Shown: one piece after another, positions 3 through 42,087 of the stretch
How positions within the stretch are numbered: the stretch's first letter is position 1
Layout of the letters: each line of letters opens with the position of its first letter
Assembly: GCA_964446575.1 (NCBI GenBank)
Contig: CAYUOX010000075.1
Span: 23,580-87,579 of the forward strand
From: an uncultured Anaerolineaceae bacterium
GTDB taxonomy: Bacteria; Chloroflexota; Anaerolineae; Anaerolineales; DRMV01
Length of the DNA: 64,000 bases
Direction of reading: 5' to 3'
Program-made: the position numbers and the translations under genes
Notes under the pieces: model-generated
What the model saw: the letters and a program-made list of their open reading frames with translations, nothing else
Databases searched by the model: none
What the model was told of the DNA's origin: nothing

Positions 3-194
3 TTGCTGCGCGAAGAGGCTGGGCTCTCGTTGCCCCGCATCGGCGAACTCTTGGGCGGCCGAGACCACTCCACCATCATGCATGGCACCCGCAAAGTGGC
101 CGACCTGCTGGAGCGCGATGCCCACTTTCGCCGGCGGGTGATGAACATCCGTGAGCATCTGTACAACCCTCATGTCCCCTTGGTAAGCGAGTGA
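3..194 (+). CDS. dnaA: Chromosomal replication initiator DnaA, C-terminal DNA-binding domain IV (5' truncated by window edge)
   Basis: SLPRIGELLGGRDHSTIMHG matches the DnaA domain IV signature (GGRDHxTVxH). Confidence 0.93.
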   Translation: MLREEAGLSLPRIGELLGGRDHSTIMHGTRKVADLLERDAHFRRRVMNIREHLYNPHVPLVSE

Positions 195-3076: not shown

Positions 3077-3688
3077 ATGGCGGCATCTTCCCAGCCACGG
3101 CCGGTCAATCCGGTGGCGGCCGCGGTGCATGCCCTGATCGCGGCTCGGTACAGTCCCACGCAATACGCGGAGCGCATGGTCGACGACGCGACCCTGCAGC
3201 GGGTGCTGGAGGCCGCGCGCTGGGCTCCGTCGTCCTATAACCGTCAACCGTGGTATTTTGTGGTCACCCGCCGCGGGCAAGAGGGTTACACGCGCCTGCT
3301 GCGCACGCTGAGCGCTTATAACCAGCGCTGGGCGCAACGGGCGCCGGTGCTGATTTTGGGCTGCGCGCAAATCGAAGACGAGCGCGGCCCCAATCGCTAT
3401 GCAGAACACGATTTGGGGTTGGCCAGCGGGTTTCTCGCGTTGCAGGCCGTGGCCGAGGGGTTGGCAACACGCTTTATTGCGGGGTTCGACAAAGACGCGG
3501 CGCGGGCGGCTTTTGGCATCCCCGCGGCGTATAAGCCCTGGACGGTCATCGCGCTGGGGTACCCGGCACCGGATGCGGACCCCCACGCGAAGCCGCGGCA
3601 ACGCAAGCCTTATGCTGCGATCATCGGCTGGGGCGGGTGGGGCGTGGCCCCGCCCTTCGCGCCCCCGGCAACCAGCGCCAGCGCATAA
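3077..3688 (+). CDS. Nitroreductase family protein
   Basis: ARYSP, LEAARWAPSSYNRQPWYF and IALGYP motifs. AGGAGGT RBS. Confidence 0.9.
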   Translation: MAASSQPRPVNPVAAAVHALIAARYSPTQYAERMVDDATLQRVLEAARWAPSSYNRQPWYFVVTRRGQEGYTRLLRTLSAYNQRWAQRAPVLILGCAQIEDERGPNRYAEHDLGLASGFLALQAVAEGLATRFIAGFDKDAARAAFGIPAAYKPWTVIALGYPAPDADPHAKPRQRKPYAAIIGWGGWGVAPPFAPPATSASA

Positions 3689-3723
3689 GCGCGGACCTGG
3701 CCGCGGGCCAGGGCATCTGCCCC

Positions 3724-3757
3724 AAAAAGCGAGGCCCCGCGAGGGGCTCGCGGGGCC
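3724..3757 (-). terminator. Intrinsic terminator (minus strand)
   Basis: Perfect 11-bp stem GGCCCCGCGAG/CTCGCGGGGCC (3733-3757) followed on the minus strand by TCGC-TTTTT. Confidence 0.8.
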
Positions 3758-3840
3758 AATCTACGAGGAGGGAGGAGAGGAGGTGTAAGTGGAGGAGGGG
3801 GCTATGCCGGTCCAATTACGCTCTCGCGCTCGCCGGCCTT
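3724..3840 (-). ncRNA. Candidate small RNA with tandem anti-Shine-Dalgarno motifs
   Basis: 5' hairpin with a GAGA tetraloop, an unpaired C/U tract with five CCUCC, a terminator, and an upstream extended -10 (TG-T-TAATCT). Structure only; no family recognised. Confidence 0.5.
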
Positions 3841-3885
3841 AGATTAACACGGTTGGCTTAAAAGAGGGTGAAAGGTACTTAAAAG
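3841..3885 (-). promoter_or_regulatory. Putative activator-dependent promoter: TTTAAG direct repeats plus extended -10
   Basis: Minus strand reads TTTAAG-tacc-TTTCAC-cctct-TTTAAG-ccaaccgtgt-TAATCT. AT-rich island with no consensus -35. Confidence 0.45.
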
Positions 3886-3902
3886 TTTCCGAAGAATTGA
3901 GA

Positions 3903-4586
3903 TCAGCGGGTGGGCAAAACCGATCCCGCGTTGAGGCGGTTCATAGCCGCGGGCAGGCCCTGTTCAATCCACAAGAGAATGCCCTCGACGGCTCGCGCTT
4001 CGATCCAAGGCCATTGTTCGCGCTCCGCGCGCGAGAAGGGGCGCAGCACATAGTCAGCCGGGTCCATACGCCCGGGTGGGCGCCCAATGCCGATGCGCAA
4101 ACGGGGGAAGTCGCGGCGCCCGCCCAGGGCGTCGATGATGGATTTCATCCCTTTATGGCCGCCATGGCCGCCTTGGGGGCGCAGGCGCACAGTGCCGAAG
4201 GGCAAGTCTAAGTCGTCGTACACCACCAGCAGGTGCGACAACGGCACCTCATACGCGCGCAGCAACGGCCGCACGGCCCGCCCCGAGAGGTTCATGTAGG
4301 TTTGGGGCTTGGCCAAAACCACGCGCGCGGGGCCCAAACGCGCGTCCGCGAGCAGGGCCTGATGCCGCGGCCCGCGAAAGGCCACGCCCAGGCGGCGGGC
4401 CAGCGCGTCCACGATCATGAAGCCCGCGTTGTGGCGGGTGGCGGCAAATTCGCGGCCAGGGTTGCCCAGGCCAACCACCAAGTAACGCGCGCGCGGCTCG
4501 CGCGGCGAGGCTGCCGCGTCTTGGGCGCGGGATGTGTCTGACAACCCGCCGGCCTGCTGCACGCGACGGATCCAATCCAGATCCAT
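3903..4586 (-). CDS. pth: Peptidyl-tRNA hydrolase
   Basis: LVVGLGNPG, TRHNAGF, KPQTYMNLSG, GGHGGHKG and RLRIGIGRP motifs. Confidence 0.96.
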   Translation of the reverse strand: MDLDWIRRVQQAGGLSDTSRAQDAAASPREPRARYLVVGLGNPGREFAATRHNAGFMIVDALARRLGVAFRGPRHQALLADARLGPARVVLAKPQTYMNLSGRAVRPLLRAYEVPLSHLLVVYDDLDLPFGTVRLRPQGGHGGHKGMKSIIDALGGRRDFPRLRIGIGRPPGRMDPADYVLRPFSRAEREQWPWIEARAVEGILLWIEQGLPAAMNRLNAGSVLPTR

Positions 4587-4952
4587 TTAGGCGTCCTCGG
4601 CGTCCATCGTTTTCTTGGGCAGGCCGACCACCCGCACGACCGGCACGACGAAGAGAATGCCCGTGTAGGGCTCGTGCAAGTCGCCGACGATTTCCTCGGT
4701 GGCGCGGATGACCCGCTCCACCGTGGCCTCATCGGGCACCACGGTGAACAGGGTCCGATGATGGTATTCTTGGCGGGCCAACAGGCTTTGCAGCGAGGGC
4801 ATGAGGCCCAGGTCGTCGCGCATCCCTCGTTGGCGATGCAGGCCCGAACTTTCCAAGATGGTGGCGCCCCCCGCGCCCGCCTTTTGCCAGGCTTCCATGA
4901 CCGCGGGGCACTGTTGGATGTCGTCGAGTACCAAAACCACGAGATAGGCCAT
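4587..4952 (-). CDS. PII-like (GlnB-like superfamily) signal protein
   Basis: 121 aa with a PII-like pattern: GATILESSG, a T-loop-like insert and a C-terminal GILFVVPV. Its stop abuts the pth ATG. Confidence 0.7.
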   Translation of the reverse strand: MAYLVVLVLDDIQQCPAVMEAWQKAGAGGATILESSGLHRQRGMRDDLGLMPSLQSLLARQEYHHRTLFTVVPDEATVERVIRATEEIVGDLHEPYTGILFVVPVVRVVGLPKKTMDAEDA

Positions 4953-4988
4953 CGCTGGCTCGCTCCTTTTGGAGGGAATGCCCCGGGC

Positions 4989-6209
4989 TCAGGCGGCCGA
5001 GGCATCTTCGGCCTGAGGCTTAGGATACAACGCCCGCAAGGCAATAGGTGTGATGAGGGTGGTCACCAGCACCATGAGCACCACGCCGGCGAACACGGTG
5101 TCGTCCACCCAACCGAACTGCATGCCCACCGAGGCGACAATCAAGCCCACTTCGCCCCGGCTGGTCATGCCGGTGCCCAACCGCACCGAGTCCTTCCACG
5201 ACAAACCGCCCAGGCGCCCGCCCAAAGTGCACCCCAAGGCCTTGGAAATCACGGCCAACACCACCAAGGTCAAGGCGATGGGCAAGCCCTCGGGCCGCAA
5301 CGCCAAACGCACATCGGTTTGCAGGCCGATGTTGACGAAGAAGATGGGCACCAACAGCGCATAGGCCAGTTTGTGCATCCCTTGCATGATGTGCCGTCGC
5401 CACGGGCTGCGGCCAAAGGCCAGCCCGGCCACGAACGCGCCGGTGATGGAGGCAATGCCGCCCAGCGCCTCTGCGGCCCACGCGTAGAGCAGGGTGAGCA
5501 CTACCGCGAAGGTCAGCAGCCCTTCGCTGATGGGCAACCGGTCGACCACCCGCCCCAAACGCGGCACCAAGCGCACTCCCAGCACCCAGGCCCCTGCCAA
5601 AAACAGGACCATGCGGGCCAACATGCCCAAAACCATGAGCGCGCCACCGCCCTCGCCCAAGGTGAAAGCCTGAAAGACCGACAACAGCAGAATGACCAGC
5701 ACATCGTCGACGACGGCCGCGCCCAGCAACGCCAAACCGACCGCGGAACGCAACACGCCCAGTTCCATGAGGGTTTGGGCCGAGATGCTGACGCTGGTGG
5801 CGGCCATGACCAGGCCGATGAACAAGCCGGCTTCGCCTGAGTAGCCCAGCGCGTCCATCACCACCCACGCCAAAAGCACGGGGGTCAACACGCCCAGCAC
5901 GCCCGTCCACACGGCAGGCCGCCCCGCACGAGCCAAGGCCTCCAGTTCGACTTCCAAACCCGCCAAAAACATGAGAAAAGCCACGCCCAAAAAGGCCAGA
6001 TGTTCCAGCACCACATCCAAATGCAGGCCGTGTTCGAACACGGGCCAGTGCAGCATGTTGAGCAGCGAGGGGCCCAGCAACAACCCGCTCAGGATTTCGC
6101 CCAATACCGTGGGCTGCCCCAAGCGCGCGCTGAGATAGCCGCCCACTTTCGCGGCCGCGATGATGAGCCCTAAGGCCAGGGCAAAGGCCAGAGTCGCATG
6201 AGCATCCAT
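4989..6209 (-). CDS. CPA2-family cation:proton antiporter (NapA/Kef type, no KTN domain)
   Basis: GEILSGLLLGPS, FLAGLE, ATSVSISAQTL, AAVVDDVL, PIFFVNIG and RGEVGLI motifs. Confidence 0.92.
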   Translation of the reverse strand: MDAHATLAFALALGLIIAAAKVGGYLSARLGQPTVLGEILSGLLLGPSLLNMLHWPVFEHGLHLDVVLEHLAFLGVAFLMFLAGLEVELEALARAGRPAVWTGVLGVLTPVLLAWVVMDALGYSGEAGLFIGLVMAATSVSISAQTLMELGVLRSAVGLALLGAAVVDDVLVILLLSVFQAFTLGEGGGALMVLGMLARMVLFLAGAWVLGVRLVPRLGRVVDRLPISEGLLTFAVVLTLLYAWAAEALGGIASITGAFVAGLAFGRSPWRRHIMQGMHKLAYALLVPIFFVNIGLQTDVRLALRPEGLPIALTLVVLAVISKALGCTLGGRLGGLSWKDSVRLGTGMTSRGEVGLIVASVGMQFGWVDDTVFAGVVLMVLVTTLITPIALRALYPKPQAEDASAA

Positions 6210-7974: not shown

Positions 7975-8106
7975 GAAGATTCGCCGTAGACCGCAGGGGC
8001 CCGACAAGGGCTTAAACCGCCTGCCGAGGCGAGGACTCGAAGCGCACCCCCACGGGGGTGGATGCGCGCGTGCCTTCCCCTCGGCGGCGAAGGCGCTTTT
8101 GTTTTT
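7975..8106 (+). ncRNA. Ribosomal protein L10 leader (autoregulatory cis-element)
   Basis: CCGTAGACCGCAGG...TAAA..CCTGCCGAGG core immediately upstream of rplJ, followed by a hairpin and T-tract. Confidence 0.8.
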
Positions 8107-8135
8107 GGGCCCGCACACATCAGGAGGTGGACGCC

Positions 8136-8690
8136 TTGGCTATCACCAAAGCCCGCAAGCGTGAATTGGTCGCGCTGTACCAGGAACTGCTGCAAAACAG
8201 CCAGGCCCTGGTCATCGCGTCCTTTCATGGCTTGAGCGTCGCGGAGACCGAGCAACTCCGCCACGCGGTGCGGGAATCGGGCGGCCGCTTGATGGTGGTG
8301 AAAAACACCCTGGTCAAGATCGCGCTGCGCGAGAGCGGCTACGCCCTGCCCGAGGACGCGTCCGTCTTCGAAGGCACCACCATGGTGGCCTTCGCGCTGC
8401 AAGACCCGGCTGCCACGGCCAAAGCCGTCGCGGACTTTGCCAAGGAGCACGAGGCGTCCTTGCGCATCAAGGCCGGCTATTTGGGCACCGAGCCCGTGAC
8501 GGCCGAGCAGGTGCGGCAACTGGCCAGCCTGCCGCCGCTGCCGGTGCTTCGGGCCCAGGTGCTGGGCACCATCATGGCCCCCGCGTCGCAGTTGGCGCGG
8601 TTGCTGGCCGAGCCCGCCCGCCAATTGGCGGCTGTGCTTCGGGCTTACAGCGAAAAAGACGGCGCTCAAGCCGAAGCGACCGCGGCATAG
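8136..8690 (+). CDS. rplJ: 50S ribosomal protein L10
   Basis: TTG start after GGAGGTG. GLSVAETEQLR, VVKNTL and LASLPP motifs. Precedes rplL. Confidence 0.95.
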   Translation: MAITKARKRELVALYQELLQNSQALVIASFHGLSVAETEQLRHAVRESGGRLMVVKNTLVKIALRESGYALPEDASVFEGTTMVAFALQDPAATAKAVADFAKEHEASLRIKAGYLGTEPVTAEQVRQLASLPPLPVLRAQVLGTIMAPASQLARLLAEPARQLAAVLRAYSEKDGAQAEATAA

Positions 8691-8755
8691 CCCGGTCGTG
8701 GATGTCGATGTTCGCAGGAACAACCCCGGTGCGATAACCCGCAGGAGGATTTGTC

Positions 8756-9139
8756 ATGGCCGATCTGGAAAAACTGGTTGAAGAACTCAGCCAACTCACC
8801 GTCATGGAAGCCGCGGAACTTGTCAAGATGCTGGAAGAAAAGTGGGGCGTGTCCGCGGCCGCGCCCGTGGCGGTGGCCGCGGTGGCCGGCGCCCCCGGCG
8901 CGGCGGCTGAAGAGGCCAAAGAAGAGAAGACCGAATTCGATGTGGTGCTCAAAGACACGGGCCCCAAGAAGATTCAGGTCATCAAGGCCATTCGCCAACT
9001 GACCAACCTGGGCCTCAAAGAGGCCAAGCAGGTGGCCGAGACGCCCGGCTCCAAGATCCTCGAGGGCGTGAGCAAGGAAGAGGCCGAGGCGGCCAAGGCC
9101 AAATTGGAAGAGGCCGGCGCGACGGTGGAAATCGTCTAA
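8756..9139 (+). CDS. rplL: 50S ribosomal protein L7/L12
   Basis: [35 protein letters not shown] and LGLKEAK motifs. Confidence 0.98.
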
Positions 9140-41688: not shown

Positions 41689-42042
41689 TTACTGAATGTG
41701 CAGCACCACCCGCGCGTCGGCCCAAAGCCCTTCCAAATCATAATAGGAACGCACATCGGGCGCGAACGCGTGCAGAATCACATCCCCAAAGTCCACCAAA
41801 ACCCAGCCTGAGCGGGCCGTGCCCTCAACGCGCCCAACAACCCCCCATTGCTGCTTGGCGCGCTCGTGCGCGGCTTCGACCAGGGTCTCTAACATGCGAT
41901 CGCTCAACCCCGAGACCAAAACGAAATAATCAGCGATGGGCGAAAGTTGCGAGATGTCCAAGACCAGGATGTCCTCTCCTTTCTTCTCCTCCAAGGCTTC
42001 GACGATGGTGTGCGTCAAACGCAAGGCGTCGGTTGAACTCAC
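41689..42042 (-). CDS. rsfS: Ribosome silencing factor
   Basis: EEKKGEDILVLD, ADYFVLVSG, WVLVDFGDVILH and YYDLEGLW motifs. GTG start after GGAGGTG. Confidence 0.95.
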   Translation of the reverse strand: MSSTDALRLTHTIVEALEEKKGEDILVLDISQLSPIADYFVLVSGLSDRMLETLVEAAHERAKQQWGVVGRVEGTARSGWVLVDFGDVILHAFAPDVRSYYDLEGLWADARVVLHIQ

Positions 42043-42087
42043 GGAGATCACCTCCGAACAAAGCGTTGGGAATCGCGGGGACGAATC

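Follow-up and report, generated by a model that had tools for sequence, protein, structure and literature searches.

The locus studied here raises the question of what is encoded in the 214-nt gap separating two convergent genes, a nitroreductase gene on the plus strand and the peptidyl-tRNA hydrolase gene pth on the minus strand, in which five CCUCC motifs are found inside 32 nt of the minus strand (3767-3798). The first-pass annotation had described this gap as a complete small transcription unit on the minus strand with several anti-Shine-Dalgarno (anti-SD) motifs, and all the motifs and coordinates named in it proved to be correct on checking the sequence. In our study, the gap was found to hold a real, conserved and strand-specific non-coding element. 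The description that we favour, with a confidence only slightly better than even, is that of a regulator-dependent anti-SD sRNA of about 112 nt, which would be made from its own promoter and would share its terminator with pth. The features of the element and its flanking genes are collected in Table 1.

Table 1. Features of the element and of the two flanking genes, with their positions in the window
Feature	Position	Strand	Remark
Nitroreductase gene	stop codon ends 3688	+	PF00881
pth, peptidyl-tRNA hydrolase, 227 aa	3903..4586, stop codon 3903-3905	-	Pfam PF01195, E=1e-65
Distal half-site TTTCAC of the direct repeat	3868..3873	-	TTTCAY in 4/4 genomes; CTTTCA columns invariant
Proximal half-site TTTAAG	3857..3862	-	exact in 4/4 genomes; 5 nt from the distal half-site, 10 nt from the -10
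Extended -10 TG-T-TAATCT	3841..3849	-	T-12, A-11 and T-7 kept; inner bases vary
Predicted RNA 5' end (about 3835-3833) and invariant 15-nt 5' box CGGCGAGCGCGAGAG	3821..3835	-	identical in 4/4 genomes
Variable purine-rich arm (GUAAUUGGA...) and small GGC-AUA-GCC hairpin	3802..3820	-	length and sequence differ among genomes
Pyrimidine tract CCCCCUCCUCCACUUACACCUCCUCUCCUCCCUCCUC with five overlapping or adjacent CCUCC	3765..3801	-	4, 4 and 3 CCUCC in the relatives
Intrinsic-terminator-like hairpin, stem 3757-3733, and U-run 3728-3724	3724..3757	-	reported by the terminator scan

The window, i.e. the whole stretch of 64,000 nt that was analysed, has a G+C content of 66%. Its source is an uncultured Chloroflexota bacterium of the Anaerolineae type, known from metagenomes alone, and the closest named relatives of its Pth are Anaerolineae/Chloroflexota MAGs with at most 62-65% identity. 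The exact pth gene was found on one contig of a hydrothermal-vent metagenome run (DNA), and alignment of the contigs of this single matching DNA run to the stretch gave one contig with zero variants. In the sequencing-run index, the stretch was present in one DNA run and in 0 RNA runs. The window opens at the 3' end of dnaA, where positions 3-194 (plus strand) encode the C-terminal helix-turn-helix end of DnaA (PF08299), and a replication origin may lie near the window start. An Ala/Leu/Trp-rich ORF of 538 aa (191-1807) follows the dnaA end and gave no Pfam match. Rfam models applied at the gathering score to the whole 64 kb returned 0 families, with no tRNA, riboswitch or r-protein leader among them; rplJ-rplL is located at about 8058-9139, yet no r-protein leader is found by Rfam in the window.

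The gene upstream of the element on the same strand is pth, which is the last member of a Na+/H+ exchanger - P-II-like - pth string. The P-II-like protein has 121 aa and a weak match to PF00543 (29.5 bits); its gene is placed between the Na+/H+ exchanger gene and pth and adjoins the pth start codon (window 4587-6209, minus strand). The same trio also occurs in the relatives L163-L166 and thus represents a conserved operon. Further, the Pth proteins of this clade (window 3903-4586, minus strand, and relatives P0002-P0010) carry an N-terminal extension of about 35 aa, the Pfam domain beginning at residue 36, and the Pth proteins of distant Chloroflexota (191-199 aa) cover only 81-84% of the query.

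The CCTCC motifs, which read GGAGG on the plus strand, start at 3767, 3771, 3779, 3791 and 3794, and one of them forms part of CACCTCC. The motif occurs 106 times in total on both strands of the 64-kb window, and the gap is the sole site with at least three GGAGG/CCTCC per 50 nt. A pyrimidine run at 41972-41992 was considered as a second element and rejected, being located inside a 120-codon ORF of the opposite strand (41689-42051). The five CCUCC reported previously, including CACCUCC, are thus present in the window; they do not represent a fixed number, the counts per genome being 5, 4, 4 and 3 in the window and three relatives described below. What is common to these four genomes is a set of three anti-SD boxes, invariant or nearly so, namely CCCCUCCUC, (C)ACCUCCU and CUCCCUCCUCGUA (the last at 3762-3774); one anti-SD box reads CACCUCCU, resembling the 3' tail of 16S rRNA. 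An anti-AUG CAU (3806-3804), borne by the GGC-AUA-GCC hairpin, is kept in three of the four genomes and in these lies 5 nt upstream of the first anti-SD box. In view of this spacing, CAUAGCCCCCUCC is an antisense copy of an SD-spacer-AUG initiation region.

At the 5' side of the predicted RNA, the box CGGCGAGCGCGAGAG has a single occurrence in the window and contains a CGC-GAGA-GYG mini-hairpin. Next comes a short segment rich in purines, with GGCAUAGCC at its end; although this arm varies, in all genomes it is purine-rich and its sequence is complementary to the beginning of the CU tract. The 5' hairpin described earlier stands in part. Its elements lie on the minus strand at 3828-3819 (CGC-GAGA-GCG), 3837-3833 (GCCGG) and 3810-3806 (CCGGC), and the mini-hairpin is compatible with all four sequences, two of which have GUG and hence a G-U pair. 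The GCCGG/CCGGC stem is not kept in L166 and is located partly upstream of the predicted +1.

The conservation of the element was followed along the pth gene. Pth-anchored scans of GTDB genomes and JGI metagenomes yielded 160 loci, all at most 65% identical, and in 0 of these were three or more clustered CCTCC located just downstream of pth; the only clusters were in L102, inside the pth match, and in L121, on the opposite strand at some 1 kb past pth. A protein search then provided nine closer Pth relatives (69-78% identical) having the common N-terminal extension, and their contigs were examined. The element is present in three further vent Chloroflexota genomes, directly after pth and on the same strand: L162 (Pth identity 78%), L166, which equals L167 (70%), and L168, which equals L169 (73%). 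Six clade members whose Pth is 69-75% identical (L163, L165, L170, L172, L174 and L175) have no such element at pth; L164 ends at pth and was left out of this count. Among the MAGs lacking the element at this locus are GCA_027034755.1, GCA_054037395.1, GCA_054035715.1 and GCA_013153335.1. Loss of the CCUCC tract in relatives had been named beforehand as a finding that would speak against an sRNA. The tract was kept with 3-4 CCUCC in the three relatives carrying the element, and the six others have no such element at their pth locus.

Among the four genomes, the pairwise identity is 69-92% for the element, 69-77% for pth DNA and 69-77% for the Pth protein, the element thus equalling pth in conservation, and the retention of intergenic DNA to this extent at such divergence indicates purifying selection. 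A chance origin of the motif cluster is excluded by its conservation in three other genomes. The gene beyond the element is a convergent nitroreductase in L162, as in the window, and a co-directional LysM-domain gene with its own promoter (TTGACG-N17-TACCAT) in L166 and L168. It is thus pth, and not the other neighbour, to which the element is linked. The LysM gene promoter (L166:3265-3330, L168:3431-3500) is itself of a conserved canonical form, TTGACG-N17-(TGt)TACCAT, from which it is evident that standard -35/-10 promoters are in use in this lineage; downstream of this promoter lies a conserved leader (..AAGAGCCGAAAATTATAGCGCATC.. / ..AAGGAGCGAAAATTATAGCACATC..), a segment which may be a cis-regulatory element. 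A covariance model (R1) was built from the four element sequences, and R1 and nhmmer, run over the loci examined and the window, recovered only the four known copies, with no second copy in the window. The box-plus-tract pattern gave 0 matches in viral contigs.

The same four sequences bear on the strand. The plus strand could encode a 12-codon peptide, MPVQLRSRARRP (3804-3842), as had been proposed for the alternative, or could give a GGA/GGAGG-rich RNA acting as a CsrB-like or ribosome sponge; the many GGA motifs of this strand agree with such a product, and both the window and L162 retain the 12-codon ORF, preceded at 5 nt by an SD-like sequence. However, the start codon is missing in L168, and in L166 a 4-nt indel brings the box into another frame with an unrelated product of 20 aa. 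Because the box of L166 stands in a different plus-strand frame from that of the window, its conservation is not due to coding, and the conserved start, frame and peptide that characterize a small protein or leader peptide were not found on the plus strand. Moreover, nothing resembling a promoter is seen on this strand, the hairpin is not followed by a T-run there, and in L166 and L168 a plus-strand transcript would have to start between the hairpin and the promoter of the co-directional gene. The ORF and its SD cluster are simply the minus-strand anti-AUG and anti-SD motifs seen in mirror image, and a plus-strand product is, in our judgement, barely credible. The choice of the minus strand made by the first-pass annotation is borne out by the T-run, which follows the stem on the pth strand only, in all four genomes.

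Upstream of the 5' box, the four genomes share the layout TTTCAY-N5-TTTAAG-N10-TAnnnT without a -35, and the bases between these blocks vary freely in the alignment. The extended -10 (TG-T-TAATCT, 3849-3841) is present as had been stated and is weak, its hexamer TAATCT matching TATAAT at 3/6 positions; TAnnnT is kept in the relatives, which read TGcTACCTT, gggTATACT and TGcTATGCT. The TG, one base ahead of the -10, is found in three of the four genomes, those with the poorer hexamers. No promoter was reported at the element by a sigma-70 consensus scan, and a TTGACA-like -35 at 16-18 nt is absent in the promoter alignment. The A+T-rich stretch upstream of the -10 has a G+C of 0.43 (3850-3909). 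Of the 176 loci examined, the sRNA loci alone have the pattern TTTMAN-N5-TTTAAG-N10-TANNNT, and the window has a single occurrence of the repeat-plus--10 pattern, also when 2 mismatches are tolerated, where 0.04 are expected. The box CGGCGAGCGCGAGAG begins 5-6 nt past the -10, the distance expected for +1, and this spacing places the predicted start at 3835-3833.

Two hexamers with a periodicity of 11 bp, of which the proximal one is located 10 bp from the -10, represent the standard geometry of class II activation by OmpR/PhoB. The proximal TTTAAG is likely to be the site of an activator of the OmpR-family type which would replace the -35, and the label 'regulated' given earlier fits the conserved direct repeat found in this place. 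A -35 role for TTTAAG, also one of the sigma-B-like kind, was rejected, since the 10-nt spacer was judged by eye to be too short. A gene for an OmpR-type regulator was not found in the 64-kb window by tblastn with an approximate probe sequence. A conserved A+T-rich block (3874-3898, minus strand) is located upstream of the repeat and does not form a stable hairpin. In the window and in L162 it reads AUUCUUCGGAAACUUUUAAGU and so includes one more TTTAAG, the third, at 4 nt from the distal half-site; the equivalent in L168 is TTTTAT-N5. This block may represent an UP-like element or a third half-site for the regulator.

The 3' end of the element has both parts of an intrinsic terminator, a GC stem-loop followed by a U-run. 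The 11-bp stem and U-tract of the first description are present; 10 of the pairs are G-C, and the stem is followed by TCGC and then by TTTTT, so that the U-run stands 4 nt from the main stem in the window (4-7 nt across the genomes). An alternative 9-bp stem (GCGAGCCCC/GGGGCCUCGC) directly adjoins the UUUUU. The outer stem GGCCCCGC/GCGGGGCC is invariant, whereas its loop and inner pairs vary with pairing kept, one pair being compensatory. The terminator scan reports the hairpin in the window and in L162, where the T-run is good, and does not report it in L166 and L168, where the U-run is shorter or interrupted.

The same scan found no other terminator between the pth stop codon and the element. 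The segment between this stop codon and the sRNA promoter has no stable hairpin (-1.9 kcal/mol, no better than shuffles), and a small UUCG hairpin AUUCUUCGGAA with a U-run, considered as a pth terminator, was rejected as it also folds no better than shuffles. As no pth terminator precedes the element, pth transcripts should end at the terminator of the element, and this hairpin is probably shared with the pth mRNA. These observations, along with the constant position of the element directly downstream of pth on the same strand and the negative sigma-70 scan, are also what would be seen if the element were a purely cis-acting pth 3' UTR, made only at the 3' end of the transcript that covers the Na/H-exchanger, P-II-like and pth genes, and acting on its own mRNA through termination, stability or pairing with the SDs of the operon. 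The conserved TAnnnT and TG, the box at +1 and the exact N5 and N10 spacings are, however, hard to explain without a promoter; the sequence from the repeat to the -10 and from the -10 to the box varies freely, which is promoter-like. Moreover, the SDs of the operon (GAGGA, GGAG) are nothing special, and six relatives do without such a UTR. An exclusively cis-acting UTR therefore appears unlikely to us. The earlier alternative of a pth 3' UTR holds insofar as the pth mRNA probably shares the terminator. An independent sRNA and a pth 3' UTR can be one and the same, and the element is best described as a 3'-UTR sRNA with its own promoter. The proposal that the minus strand carries a discrete transcription unit, complete with -10, anti-SD tract and terminator, has gained comparative support from four genomes.

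Minimum-free-energy and partition-function folds were computed for all four RNAs. In these folds a portion of the CU tract is engaged by the purine-rich 5' third of the RNA, and due to this pairing the predicted accessibility of the tract is low, most CCUCC motifs having a mean P(unpaired) of 0.2-0.5 at 37 C. Of the CCUCC motifs, the first alone is clearly open, namely in the window and in L168 (0.86-0.90), and the CACCUCC of L168 is nearly fully masked by GGGUAGGUG (P unpaired 0.01). The 3' motifs are predicted to open progressively at 55 and 70 C. The fold z-scores of -1.2 to -4.0 are inflated by the segregated purine/pyrimidine composition, and there is almost no covariation, with n=4 sequences and both pairing partners largely invariant. 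The tract of about 40 nt, which had been described as unpaired, is thus predicted to be partially self-paired, and on these folds a partial self-masking would describe it equally as well as 'unpaired'.

The possible targets were considered from the ribosome-binding sites of the window. In a crude gene call, GGAGG was found within 22 nt of the chosen start in 20 of 34 window genes and GGAG or GAGG in 32 of 34, counts which are overestimated because the starts were chosen partly by their SD. The energies of duplexes with the tract reach -25 kcal/mol. Beyond the SD core, no extended complementarity to the 5' box or the 3' box was found in the window, and this fits an RNA that serves as a decoy or sponge without acting on mRNAs: its CACCUCCU-containing tract would mimic the 16S 3' tail or offer pyrimidines, titrating S1, a nuclease which processes or cleaves the 16S 3' end, or another pyrimidine-binding protein. 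The repeated motifs give a sponge-like architecture, three of the four genomes retain ACACCUCCU(C/U)U, and the sequence in L168, CACCUCCUUUUCU, is close to a bacterial 16S 3' end, the 16S gene of the organism itself being absent from the window. However, the gene context indicates no protein partner, and the CAU at the SD-to-AUG distance in three of the four genomes fits pairing with initiation regions better than protein binding. A role as decoy only is, in our opinion, quite unlikely.

From the sequence features described above we infer transcription, activator dependence, base pairing with mRNAs and repression. The minus-strand sRNA gene would extend over about 112 nt, roughly from 3835 to 3724, and would be transcribed from the extended -10, an activator bound to the direct repeat 10 bp upstream replacing the -35. 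Transcription would end at the GC-rich hairpin and U-run, which would also terminate the upstream pth mRNA. Through its anti-SD boxes the RNA may then base-pair with several mRNAs at their GGAGG-type ribosome-binding sites, so that 30S would be kept from binding, the purine-rich 5' third partly masking the tract.

To our knowledge, very few regulatory RNAs have been described in Chloroflexota, and we know of none in this uncultured hydrothermal lineage. As the promoter, start, seed boxes and terminator of the candidate are defined, it could be an entry point to the post-transcriptional control of the phylum. The promoter points to a specific class of regulator, and the proposed mechanism is obvious and testable. 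Further, the element would add an independent example of an anti-SD sRNA in organisms with strong GGAGG ribosome-binding sites, and its fixed place behind pth, a gene of translation quality control, may hint at a coupling with translational stress.

The arrangement behind pth recalls a known group of RNAs. Type I 3'-UTR sRNAs with their own promoter include DapZ and MicL of enterobacteria. Like these, the element is located directly behind a coding sequence on the same strand, with its own promoter and a shared mRNA terminator, both predicted; unlike them, its promoter lies after the stop codon and not inside the coding sequence.

The comparison with Rfam that had been suggested for the locus gave no family at the gathering thresholds, among them csRNA, RsaE/RoxS, asd, alpha-r14 and RF02278 insofar as the library contains them. 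A search of 3600-4000 with Rfam 15 at E<=10 gave nothing usable under any family name. The best sub-threshold match, lying over the tract and the terminator, was RF02278, the Betaproteobacteria toxic small RNA, which scored 18.6 bits (E=0.22 on only 401 nt) where the gathering score is 50; the CU motifs and an unspecific terminator account for this match. The members of RF02278 are expressed in Burkholderia and are toxic when cloned in E. coli (PMC4603805). The element shares with them the CU-rich CCUCC-type motifs followed by a terminator hairpin, whereas the 5' hairpin of the model is missing in it and the taxon is different.

In the alpha-rhizobia, NfeR1/alpha-r14 and AbcR1/2 are transcribed under stress-responsive regulators and occlude the ribosome-binding sites of many mRNAs by means of several functionally redundant anti-SD seeds, NfeR1/alpha-r14 having three copies of CCUCCUCCC (PMC10746234). 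The element resembles alpha-r14 in having several anti-SD copies, and the window RNA contains CCUCCUCC. In alpha-r14, however, each motif is presented in the unpaired part of its own hairpin, whereas the motifs of the element are contiguous and predicted to be partly paired; a fold with three hairpins, each presenting CCUCCUCCC, was not obtained for any homologue. There is also no sequence or covariance-model similarity to alpha-r14/AbcR, and the phylum is different.

The closest parallel in gene layout is with the streptococcal csRNAs. These RNAs of about 50-200 nt combine anti-SD and anti-AUG (CAU) motifs with an intrinsic terminator and are CiaR-dependent (PMC3091779). Their genes have been searched for with the pattern TTTAAG-N5-TTTAAG-N10-TATAAT, and the CiaR box is NTTAAG-N5-TTTAAG at 10 bp from the -10, with at most 1 mismatch per hexamer and an invariable final G (PMC3091779). 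The element shares with the csRNAs its gene layout, the proximal TTTAAG and the N5 and N10 spacings in all four genomes, and its terminator stem lies 84-108 nt downstream of the -10, well inside the 250 nt allowed for csRNAs. With regard to the pairing features, anti-SD boxes are found in four and CAU in three of the four genomes, with a predicted accessibility of mostly 0.2-0.5. On the other hand, two positions that never vary in CiaR boxes, the G and the second A, are not matched in the distal TTTCAY of the element; TTTCAC/TTTCAT thus deviates at 2 positions, one of them the G. Since the distal hexamer deviates in this way, the site is to be described as resembling a CiaR box and not as a member of this class. 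Moreover, the csRNAs have one unpaired linker between two stem-loops, whereas the element repeats the anti-SD motif 3-5 times in one tract, and they belong to Streptococcus, whereas the element is found in Chloroflexota. It may be speculated, with a good deal of doubt, that the element and the csRNAs represent one deep design, in which an OmpR-family two-component regulator of envelope or stress responses, bound to TTTAAG repeats, would drive an sRNA bearing the 16S anti-SD and so throttle initiation broadly, the purine arm serving as a temperature-sensitive mask; Chloroflexota and Firmicutes would then share it by descent or by close convergence. As the element conforms neither to the csRNAs nor to alpha-r14, it is placed here as a new family among the anti-SD sRNAs.
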